DNA from: Thermoanaerobaculia bacterium
GTDB lineage: Bacteria > Acidobacteriota > Thermoanaerobaculia > Multivoradales > JAGPDF01
Direction: 5' to 3'
NCBI GenBank assembly: GCA_036397015.1
Contig: DASWJT010000008.1
Span: 21,074 to 85,073, forward strand
DNA length: 64,000 bases
The stretch's first letter is position 1. Each line of letters starts with the position of its first letter. Both the position numbers and the translations under genes were made by a program. Shown piece by piece: positions 31,575 through 33,101 of this stretch. The notes below the pieces were generated by a model that worked only from the letters and a program-made list of their open reading frames with translations, made no database searches and was not told where the DNA came from.

Positions 31575-33101
31575 GTGTCGGAGCTCGAGGAACAGATCGC
31601 CGTTCGGCGCGAGAAGCGCGCCCGCCTGCTGGCTCGTGGCGTCGACGCCTACCCGGCGCACTGCGCCTACGATCTCGAGCCGGCCGACGTCCGGGCGCAA
31701 TGGGACGAGCGCTCCGCCGACGAGCTCGCGGCGGCGGCCGTGCGCCTGCGCGTGCCCGGCCGCATCCGGGCGCTGCGCGACCAGGGGCGGATCGCCTTCT
31801 TCGACCTTCACGACGGCCGTGCCAAGCTGCAGGTCTTCGTGCGTACGCAGGCGCTCGACGAGCCGTCGCGAGAGCTGCTCGCTGATCTCGACCTCGGCGA
31901 CTACCTGCTCGCCGAGGGCCCGCTCGGCCGCACGCGGTCGGGCGAGCTGTCGCTCTTCGCCGAGCGGCTGACGCTGCTCTCGAAGGCGCTCAGGCCGCTG
32001 CCGGAGAAGTGGCACGGTCTCGCCGACCAGGAGGCGCGCTACCGCCGCCGCTATCTCGACCTGATCGCCAATCCGGAGTCGCGGCGGACTTTCGAGATCC
32101 GCGCCGCGCTGGTCGCCGGCATTCGCCGCTTCCTCGAAGCACGCGGCTTCCTCGAGGTCGAGACGCCGATGATGCAGGCGATTCCGGGCGGCGCGGTGGC
32201 GCGGCCGTTCGTCACCCACCACAACGCCCTCGACCTCGAGCTCTTCCTGCGCATCGCGCCCGAGCTCTACCTCAAGCGCCTGCTCGTTGGTGGCCTGCAC
32301 CGCGTCTACGAGATCAACCGCAACTTCCGCAACGAGGGCCTCTCGACCCAGCACAACCCCGAGTTCACCATGCTCGAGTTCTACTGGGCCTACGCCGACT
32401 ACCGCCAGCTCATGGACCTCACCGAGGAGATGCTCGTCGGCCTGGCACGAGAAGTCCTGAAAGACGAAAAGCTCTCATTCAGGGGAAAGACGCTCGATCT
32501 CACACCGCCCTGGCCACGCCTGACAATGGCGGAGGCCCTCGAGCGCCTGGCCGGATTGGCACCGGACGAGTGCAGCACGGCGGCCGGGCTGCTTTCTGCC
32601 TGCGAGGCGAGGGGATTGTCGATCCCGCCCGACGTCGCCGCCGCGCCGTCGCCGGATCCCTTGTATGGAAGCCTCTTGTGTTTTGTTTTTGAAAAACTGT
32701 GTGAAGAGCGGCTCGACGGACCGCTGTTCATCATCGATCATCCGGTCGAGATCTCGCCGCTGTCCAAGCAGAAGCCGGAGGATCCGCGCTTCACCGAGCG
32801 CTTCGAGCTCTATCTGGGCGGCATGGAGATCGCCAACGCCTTTTCGGAGCTCAACGACCCGGACGTGCAGGCCGAGCGCTTCCGCCAGCAGCTCGCGGCG
32901 CGCGCAGCGGGCGACGCGGAGGCCCATCGCTTCGATCACGATTACGTGCGGGCCCTCGAGCACGGCATGCCGCCGGCGGCCGGCGAAGGGATCGGCATCG
33001 ATCGGCTGACAATGCTCTTCGCCGACCGGGCGTCGATCCGCGACGTCATTCTCTTCCCGCTGCTGCGCCCCGAGGAGCACGCGCCGGACGATAGCCCGTG
33101 A
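31575..33101 (+). CDS. lysS: Lysine--tRNA ligase (class II)
   Basis: An in-frame GTG at 31575 in ORF 31458..33101. It contains RYRRRYLDLI, FLEVETPMMQ, YEINRNFRNEG, HNPEFTMLEFY, FSELNDP and GIGIDRL. Confidence 0.95.
   Translation: MSELEEQIAVRREKRARLLARGVDAYPAHCAYDLEPADVRAQWDERSADELAAAAVRLRVPGRIRALRDQGRIAFFDLHDGRAKLQVFVRTQALDEPSRELLADLDLGDYLLAEGPLGRTRSGELSLFAERLTLLSKALRPLPEKWHGLADQEARYRRRYLDLIANPESRRTFEIRAALVAGIRRFLEARGFLEVETPMMQAIPGGAVARPFVTHHNALDLELFLRIAPELYLKRLLVGGLHRVYEINRNFRNEGLSTQHNPEFTMLEFYWAYADYRQLMDLTEEMLVGLAREVLKDEKLSFRGKTLDLTPPWPRLTMAEALERLAGLAPDECSTAAGLLSACEARGLSIPPDVAAAPSPDPLYGSLLCFVFEKLCEERLDGPLFIIDHPVEISPLSKQKPEDPRFTERFELYLGGMEIANAFSELNDPDVQAERFRQQLAARAAGDAEAHRFDHDYVRALEHGMPPAAGEGIGIDRLTMLFADRASIRDVILFPLLRPEEHAPDDSP
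32459..32486 (+). repeat. aaRS-associated AT-rich motif, copy G (forward), inside lysS
   Basis: The sequence is gaaagacgaaaagctctcattcagggga. The first 15 nt are identical to the reverse complement of hisS copy A, and 23 of 28 positions match overall. Confidence 0.75.
32658..32708 (-). repeat. aaRS-associated AT-rich motif, copy C (reverse), inside lysS
   Basis: The sequence is cccttgtatggaagcctcttgtgttttgtttttgaaaaactgtgtgaagag. The reverse-complement core ggcttccatacaaggg differs from copy E (ggcttccatagaaggg) at one position. Confidence 0.75.

Follow-up and report, generated by a model that had tools for sequence, protein, structure and literature searches.

We analysed a 64-kb stretch of DNA (the window) from a Thermoanaerobaculia metagenome-assembled genome (MAG), with a GC content of 71.9%. 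Its lysS gene (31575-33101, + strand) encodes a class II lysyl-tRNA synthetase of 508 aa from a GTG start and hosts two inverted copies of a short motif, which are the subject of this work. The LysRS of the window was 100% identical to P0001, 'lysine--tRNA ligase [Thermoanaerobaculia bacterium]', and matched E. coli LysRS (1bbu) with E = 9e-151. Further copies were located at hisS, which ends at 15776, at aspS (15875-17620) and in the 98-nt spacer between these two genes (15777-15874). We showed that a repeat family exists in the clade, that the geometry of its pairs is consistent, and that its coding copies are overprinted without insertions or deletions. The lysS feature is very probably a dispersed pair resembling the repetitive extragenic palindromic (REP) sequences, and not a synthetase signal. 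The DNA covered for the clade amounted to about 265 kb, largely syntenic, and lysS DNA was taken from eight related metagenomic genomes with a LysRS identity of 77-83%. Copy counts rest on the window, the fetched contigs of relatives (numbered L below) and metagenome loci.

The left half-site of lysS (32456-32492, - strand) encodes LKDEKLSFRGKT. On the + strand it consists of a purine-rich arm gaaagacgaaaag (32459-32471), then the complement of the core, GCTCTCATTCAGGGG (32471-32485), and then the inner flank aaagacg; the last g of gaaagacgaaaag doubles as the first base of the core complement. The right half-site (32652-32708, + strand) encodes DPLYGSLLCFVFEKL, and its core CCCTTGTATGGAAGC (32658-32672) is followed by a T-rich arm ctcttgtgttttgtttttgaaaaactg. 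These half-sites corresponded to copies G and C of the original prediction, which had been made from the letters of the window, and the two patches indeed lay 171 nt apart in opposite orientation. The spacer between the arms (32493-32651, + strand) was, by protein alignments, ordinary coding sequence between class II motifs 2 and 3, and it was homologous in LysRS proteins without the motif. The distance between the sites varied among relatives, with region lengths of 255-366 nt. The peptides encoded by the patches, VLKDEKLSFRGKTLDL and DPLYGSLLCFVFEKLCEE, aligned with E. coli LysRS 1bbu without gaps, as had been claimed, and gaps were confined to the spacer. An insertion into lysS was ruled out by these ungapped protein alignments.

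Alignment of the window copies defined the motif as a near-palindromic core CCCTTCWATGGAAGC followed by a T-rich arm. About 45 copies were aligned. Each arm had three parts, namely an inner flank (GTCTTT), the core and an outer pyrimidine-rich arm. The core was a 12-bp near-palindrome, CTTC-WATG-GAAG, within the extended consensus GTCTTT-CCCTTCWATGGAAG-YCTTTYG. Within one unit, CTTC/GAAG alone (4 bp) was self-complementary, and the flanks GTCTTT...GYCTTT were direct, not inverted, repeats. Inverted geometry with the cores inward and the A/T-rich arms outward, 45-300 nt apart, was observed in 11 pairs: lysS, the first hisS pair, the dnaE-like gene of L006, xdhC of L108, L224, L208, L197, L225, L196 (two pairs) and L227. 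L203 was the sole exception to this geometry. The arrangement of a pair is identical when read on either strand.

About eight copies were present in the window, in hisS, the hisS-aspS spacer, aspS and lysS, with a weak core after aspS. Six of the eight were intragenic, the others being 15803-15865 and the weak 17662-17685. The copies numbered about one per 8 kb but were strongly clustered, 4.9 kb of the 64 kb accounting for all of them. A search with CCCTTCWATGGAAGC allowing at most three mismatches gave 7 matches against 1.13 expected, and at least 7 were reached in none of 100 shuffles. Among the seven 30-nt stretches of at most 40% GC in the 64 kb, five were motif copies. The link between lysS and hisS that had been pointed out earlier was reproduced. 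The 15-mer gaaagacgaaaagct at 32459-32473 was the exact reverse complement of 15233-15247, and with at most two mismatches it had 2 matches against 0.03 expected in shuffles, beyond chance as had been argued. The 28-nt comparison of lysS and hisS gave 23 matching positions, base by base, and the core of the right half-site was one base off the hisS copy at 15510-15524. Chance or a codon-usage artefact was ruled out by the shuffles together with the conservation in relatives described below.

The same nucleotides were read in at least five combinations of frame and orientation. They encoded SSMEAF in hisS, P(L/F)YGS in lysS and K(A/T)SIEGG in hisS and aspS, and LPL(R/K)ER was encoded in hisS and in the polymerase gene of a relative. 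Antisense copies gave K(A/T)SIEG(G/K/R) in HisRS, AspRS, a kinase, XdhC and PabB-PabC. Sense copies gave PF(Y/N)GSL in LysRS and PabB-PabC, with the variant PFNESL in the kinase. A motif at the protein level was ruled out by the number of frame and orientation combinations, and action of the motif at the nucleotide level was supported. A molecular drive like that of uptake sequences was considered at this point, that is, a signal for DNA uptake or recombination which accumulates by point mutation where proteins tolerate it. A core with an AT-rich flank, overprinted in several frames at poorly conserved positions where amino-acid changes are tolerated, is also found in uptake signal sequences (USS; PMC2817400), and the recurrent peptides K[AT]SIEG and PF[YN]GSL fit such a drive. 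However, about one clustered copy per 8 kb differs from USS and DNA uptake sequences (DUS), which number hundreds to thousands and occur dispersed at about one per kb. Uptake sequences also show neither an obligatory inverted pairing at 45-300 nt nor inserted hairpin units like those described below, and we regard this drive as very improbable.

Both half-sites were found at the same codons in the eight lysS orthologues, with varying quality. The original prediction had raised the conservation of AT-rich codons in lysS relatives, and it was clearly visible. In the eight orthologues, with the window excluded, the fractions of A/T-ending codons at the two sites were 0.47 and 0.44 against a gene mean of 0.11 (standard deviation 0.08), and the sites were the top two of 492 eight-codon windows. 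Rare TCA, AGG, GGA and TAT codons were fixed at the lysS sites, with TCA, AGG and GGA marking the left half-site in the eight relatives. In the nine lysS genes, one Ser column held 6 of all 9 TCA codons, one Arg column 8 of 25 AGG codons, and two Gly columns 14 of 39 GGA codons. In the right core, the codon preceding GGA encoded Y, N or D and was always NAT, so that 'NAT GGA' was kept. The right arm was more T-rich in the window lineage, with changes from A to C and from S/Q/E to K toward T/A-rich codons. We showed that the lysS arms were conserved at the same codons across genus-level divergence, with rare codons and some amino-acid changes.

The limits of this conservation were also seen. 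The lysS of L006 (79% identity) had degenerate half-sites only, and LysRS relatives at 67% identity or less had no motif. A profile of the copies, searched against 80 lysS loci of other taxa, matched only the window and the closest genome among the matches listed. The profile search found further copies in every close relative fetched. When the L006 lysS was translated straight through, internal stop codons appeared. In the LysRS relative P0058, an out-of-frame stretch (SFHIRERPWTLKRPWAAL...; alignment A2, columns about 290-330) started exactly at the left half-site. A sequencing error is a possible cause, perhaps arising in homopolymer runs (AGGGGAAAG) of the motif.

The fixed codons could also be read as clusters of rare codons, conserved for slowing translation where domains meet and so aiding co-translational folding, with the similarity between sites being incidental. 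On each border of the LysRS insertion module the rare codons were conserved position by position, which fits this account. It gives no account of the shared 15-mer, of the common core across frames and orientations, or of the intergenic and inserted copies, and the same nucleotide motif was already observed in non-coding DNA. We consider it extremely improbable as an explanation of the motif, and pausing at rare codons could be a side effect of it.

Three copies were located in hisS. Copy 1 (15044-15073, - strand, encoding LLPLRERL) had the core and inner flank and no AT-rich arm; it aligned ungapped with E. coli HisRS and was found in L233 and partly in L234. Copy 2 (15215-15250, + strand, encoding SSMEAFRLSY) had the core and arm and contained the shared 15-mer. 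It was present in L233 and absent from L234, where DNA and peptide differed (IDALAAARLVH) with most positions changed. Copies 1 and 2 formed a cores-inward pair. The fold paired both cores, and the region folded better than shuffles (z = -2.8). Copy 3 (15500-15528, - strand, encoding KASIEGG) had a perfect core CCCTTCTATGGAAGC and was confined to the window lineage, being absent from L233 and L234. The aspS copy (16790-16824, - strand, core and arm, encoding FQVFSKTSIEGG) lay where the insertion (GAD) domain begins. It was degenerate in L233 (KTFDEGG) and absent from L234 (KVFREGG). The full copy occurred in the window lineage only, and L233 was intermediate in the series KVFREGG, KTFDEGG, KTSIEGG. 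A weak core-like copy CCATTCTGTGGAAGT (17662-17685, + strand, E = 2.9) in the gap between aspS and the dehydroquinate (DHQ) synthase gene is possibly a degenerate partner of the aspS copy. The orientation along hisS-aspS alternated (-, +, -, +, -, weak +), and that of the lysS pair was -, +.

The intergenic copy (15803-15865, + strand), with core CCCTTCTATGAAAGC and a T-rich arm, lay directly 5' of the Shine-Dalgarno sequence and start codon of aspS. The original prediction had placed a copy at 15803-15839 (about 15807) in hisS; it actually lies in the 98-nt spacer. The profile search also added the two core-only hisS copies (15044-15073 and 15500-15528), and the weak 17662-17685 was a further addition to that prediction. 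The hisS-aspS spacer of L234 (85 nt, 9916-10000) held a similar motif copy, and L233 (9960-10010) had no spacer. The spacer looked like an insertion because hisS and aspS overlap in L233 (ATGA). An open reading frame (ORF) starting from the core ATG (MKAF...) had 17 codons in the window and 16 in L234, and these frames ended either on the aspS start codon or 4 nt short of it. The idea of a leader peptide is unproven, because frames this short are expected to be open in DNA of such GC content.

HisRS aligned with E. coli HisRS with zero gaps over residues 3-421. The AspRS site lay in a loop of species-variable length, and L233 and L234 were equal in length there. The hisS and aspS sites differed from those of the relatives by substitutions only, with altered peptides. 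The ungapped LysRS and HisRS alignments and the equal AspRS length in relatives meant that the motif was superimposed on homologous codons. Sequence comparison showed that the hisS and aspS copies come and go among close relatives.

Copies were also found in unrelated genes. L006, a complete Thermoanaerobaculia chromosome and the closest among the matches listed, carried a strong pair 290 nt apart in a DnaE-like polymerase gene (HHH_6 and OB fold). This gene (1389-4935, - strand) was broken into several ORFs, which likely reflects frameshifts in the MAG assembly. About 110 kb of other clade DNA held no copies besides those of the dnaE-like gene and one spacer. In L227, the 212-nt spacer (5374-5585) that separates a radical-SAM gene from a threonine-aldolase-like gene contained a complete pair, which started about 9 nt past the stop codon. 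The pair was an insertion with presence/absence polymorphism, because the orthologous spacers of five relatives measured only 24-59 nt; the insertion was put at 185 nt. No clear target-site duplication was visible, and the orthologous spacers were too diverged to define the empty site exactly. Terminal inverted repeats together with presence/absence polymorphism at orthologous sites, the marks of a miniature inverted-repeat transposable element (MITE), were thus seen at L227 and at the hisS-aspS spacer.

A metagenome scan with CYCTTCWATGGAAGYYTYT gave at least 119 matches, mostly chance matches in low-GC contigs, and the high-GC subset alone was used. At least 11 loci of at least 61% GC carried the pattern (roughly 9 independent). 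A perfect 17-bp inverted repeat, 65 nt apart, was found in the xdhC linker of L108, and two motif pairs were found in the pabB-pabC fusion gene of L196. Other carriers were a Ser/Thr kinase gene (L203) and the spacers 5' of surE (L224) and 5' of a thiamine pyrophosphate (TPP)-enzyme gene; several of the metagenome copies were intergenic. L224 was placed in the same Thermoanaerobaculia clade, because its SurE was 79-81% identical to SurE on contigs holding the lysS and aspS relatives. Set against typical members of their families, the kinase and pabB copies presumably replace residues without lengthening the protein. In L197 (2122-2464), a left arm with a very long A-rich tract preceded two right-hand copies in tandem, spaced by about 125 nt, and this array lay beyond the gene for a YbaK-type aminoacyl-tRNA editing domain.

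These carriers bear on a synthetase-specific function, in which a class II cis-element would co-regulate hisS, aspS and lysS, e.g. via an RNA or protein regulator that senses translation status. The original prediction had restricted the motif to class II synthetases. Within the window this held, and the local enrichment was real in the window lineage, because all three synthetase genes carried the motif and no other window gene did; Pfam scans and the synteny tables of relatives revealed no synthetase gene in the window beyond hisS, aspS and lysS. In addition, the lysS pair was kept in nine genomes, hisS copies 1 and 2 were common to L233, and the copies in the LysRS, HisRS and AspRS genes flanked insertion modules between motifs 2 and 3. 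However, the restriction failed outside the window, by the criterion of copies in unrelated genes that the original prediction had itself named. Copies or pairs were present in the DnaE-like gene of L006, xdhC, pabB-pabC, the kinase gene and intergenic spacers, and not one of the high-GC metagenome loci (at least 11 matches, roughly 9 of them independent) was in a synthetase gene. The gain and loss of hisS and aspS copies among close relatives also spoke against it, as did the lack of cognate-codon enrichment at the sites on reading the codon alignments. We showed that the motif is not exclusive to synthetase genes, and the specific element is improbable.

Known elements were also compared. 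The window, the motif regions and six related loci had no Rfam match that would indicate a known RNA family. At the gathering threshold only tRNA was found, and the motif regions and six related loci gave just chance-level matches at E ≤ 5. The tRNA-Arg(CCT) at 46943-47019 was the sole Rfam or ARAGORN match in the window. No T-box-like leader was present, and the copies lay internal to genes. Consensus scans gave no internal promoter or canonical terminator at any copy. A phage origin was rejected, since 24 matches in viral contigs were about the number calculated for random sequence of that size. A literature search for the core sequence returned one irrelevant primer match only.

The remaining genes around the motif were ordinary housekeeping genes. 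The 162-kb ENA contig ERZ27256989 k141_885759 agreed with the window at 21,488 of 21,527 positions (39 differences), and the contig of a second sample had 19 differences over 7,252 positions, none of the 19 inside the lysS half-sites. Two AT-rich patches, at 29609-29639 and 38659-38692, had no relation to the motif. One was inside a conserved 497-aa protein of unknown function, and the other was in bamA (LFKINQLNYFE) and apparently conserved in L006.

Folding was predicted for inserted and overprinted copies. The inserted units were long hairpins (z = -2.5, -6.5 and -4.1), and their spacers were mutually unrelated and each self-complementary. In lysS, the cores were paired in both the minimum-free-energy and the centroid folds. 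The predicted probability of core-core pairing reached 0.82 for the window, and five of the nine orthologues, whose spacer lengths differed, had values of 0.33 or more. We favour, as rather probable, an explanation in which a REP-like pair was overprinted on lysS. Whole units, of roughly 100-250 nt, would be inserted into intergenic spacers and protein linkers, where they fold as a long hairpin. In the three synthetase genes of the window the arms alone are present, and they would have been written on pre-existing codons by substitution. The positions used tolerate change and border the variable insertion modules between class II motifs 2 and 3, and protein length and homology are kept. Recognition of the pair as a unit may be what maintains the arms. 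The mode of recognition that we consider most likely is more tentative, and rather less probable than not. The two cores would base-pair in single-stranded mRNA, or in DNA during replication or transposition, and close a long stem-loop, which would be recognised by the trans-acting partner of the family, a nuclease, a transposase-like protein or an RNA-processing protein. In lysS the effect might be post-transcriptional, on mRNA processing or stability, or there might be none, the pair being a selfishly maintained passenger.

Several results weighed against this explanation. In four of the nine lysS orthologues the cores were not predicted to pair, and the lysS region did not fold better than shuffles (z = -0.13). 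Exceptional stability of an RNA duplex was rejected, since the arm-arm energy in lysS (-33 kcal/mol) equalled the mean of random GC-rich windows. Covariation was weak, with 72.0% paired cells against 71.4% with species-shuffled partners. Double changes in pairs numbered 8 against 4.7 expected, a marginal excess that was reached by 13 of 500 shuffles. A sense-strand RNA bias was rejected, because the folding energies of 13 units differed both ways between strands; the excess of G·U over A·C in the sense orientation, which speaks for a stem, was only 53:27 and came from non-independent sequences. A single unit here has a 4-bp palindrome (CTTC/GAAG) and not the 5-13 bp stem of a REP unit. Pfam scans and synteny tables gave no transposase, REP-associated tyrosine transposase (RAYT) or recombinase genes in the window. 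The explanation gives no account of how a whole-unit inserter becomes written arm by arm onto a conserved coding spacer, and a purely random dispersed repeat does not account for the local concentration in three synthetase genes.

Since covariation was weak, each arm may be held to consensus independently, and independent recognition of each arm by a protein is the main rival to the stem mechanism. The near-palindromic cores would then be operators of a dimeric DNA-binding protein, bound in double-stranded DNA with the two sites looped. This was consistent with the 12-bp near-palindromic core, with arms conserved toward the consensus and not co-varying with the partner, and with the absence of a folding strand bias. 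Looping tolerates the variable 45-300 bp spacing, and such sites can arise in situ by point substitution. However, the self-complementary spacers and long hairpins of the inserted units are needless for a pure double-stranded-DNA model, strict cores-inward geometry is not needed for looping, and no regulator gene is known. We consider operators unlikely.

The palindromic core was also considered as a site of recombination. An invertase would flip the 188-bp segment and switch LysRS (and HisRS) between functional and non-functional forms. Inverted repeats and a palindromic core with an asymmetric centre (WATG) are the layout of a recombinase crossover, and simulated inversion left the lysS and hisS frames open. 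However, this open frame was uninformative, because antisense frames are expected to be open at 72% GC. Flipping would put the inverted segment in place of conserved catalytic-domain sequence in an essential enzyme, the orientation was the same in all nine assemblies, and no recombinase was found nearby. An inverton was considered highly improbable.

A last possibility was that the paired arms are a selected intragenic cis-element and not a passenger repeat, acting as a long-range, translation-sensitive stem. The transcript of either strand would contain an A-rich tract, the 5' half of the stem, 140-300 nt of coding sequence, the 3' half of the stem and a U-rich tract. The stem would form only if ribosomes lag behind RNA polymerase, and it would then trigger processing or premature termination. 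If true, this element would couple the expression of lysS, hisS, aspS and the other carriers to translation status, and it would be a new class of regulatory structure made by overprinting a repeat onto essential genes. We consider it quite unlikely.

The REP-like pair that we favour is ordinary in kind, being a lineage-specific palindromic repeat, and unusual in form, with arms on the codons of essential synthetases. A nucleotide-level code is here strong enough to fix rare codons and to alter amino acids in an enzyme that is both essential and universally conserved, and it has lasted through genus-level divergence. In annotation, such patches could be mistaken for horizontal transfer, assembly error or gene-specific regulators. 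If the pairs are functional, they would point to a system of regulation or genome maintenance in the Thermoanaerobaculia, a group that has barely been studied.

Rickettsia palindromic elements (RPE) and in-frame MITE insertions, also cited in PMC3733652, are palindromic repeats located within essential genes at tolerated positions, and RPEs lengthen the protein. The present copies shared the in-frame residence in essential genes, and the copy in the xdhC linker of L108 looked RPE-type. However, the lysS pair leaves protein length unchanged, and neither lysS nor hisS had added residues relative to homologues without the element. Auxiliary operators such as lacO2 in lacZ and galOI in galE are palindromic protein-binding sites inside ORFs, paired over 100-400 bp. 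They also embed palindromic sites in a reading frame and act in pairs. However, they serve one operon and one regulator, and the present motif occurs at many unrelated loci and in inserted hairpin units. USS and DUS (PMC2817400) resemble it in that a motif with an AT-rich flank is put on codons by substitution in several frames, with poorly conserved residues favoured and recurrent motif-encoded peptides. They differ in being roughly ten times denser, evenly spread and functional as single copies, whereas the present copies are clustered and paired.

The closest likeness was to REP sequences and to their hairpin-forming dimers (REPIN) (PMC3733652, PMC3116915). Both are short, dispersed, lineage-confined repeats. 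REP families consist mostly of inverted dimers with spacers of 20-100 bp, often structured, just 3' of ORFs (PMC3733652). REPINs are predominantly extragenic, with many copies per genome, and go with a cognate RAYT gene that the repeats flank. The inverted dimers found here likewise had variable, often self-complementary spacers and could form one large hairpin, as seen in the 11 cores-inward pairs, the z of -2.5 to -6.5 for inserted units and the lysS pairing of 0.82. Intergenic copies lay just 3' of stop codons between co-directional genes. Intragenic copies lay in dnaE-type polymerase and tRNA synthetase genes, and intragenic REPs have been published notably in dnaE2 and tRNA synthetase genes (PMC3733652). 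REP units are palindromes 20-40 bp long, in which a 5-13 bp stem closes a loop of 2-20 nt (PMC3733652, Table 1). An unpaired GTAG or CGTC (TGTC/CCTC) tag sits at one stem end. Membership of the GTAG/CGTC REP superfamily does not hold, because the unit here is without a 5-13 bp stem. Several copies had (C/A)GTCTTT 5' of the core, which neither adjoined a stem nor was constant, and a GTAG or CGTC tag next to a stem was not clearly present. The intragenic REPs published so far are inserted sequences through which the protein gains 20-30 residues, and de novo formation of REP-type repeats was explicitly left open (PMC3733652). The present arms bear on this question of origin, since they were seemingly assembled in place by substitution and not inserted. 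No residues are gained through the lysS, hisS and aspS arms, between which lie 140-190 nt of genuine coding sequence. REPs within dnaE2 and tRNA synthetase genes have been described before, but substitution-built arms without added residues differ from the published ones.

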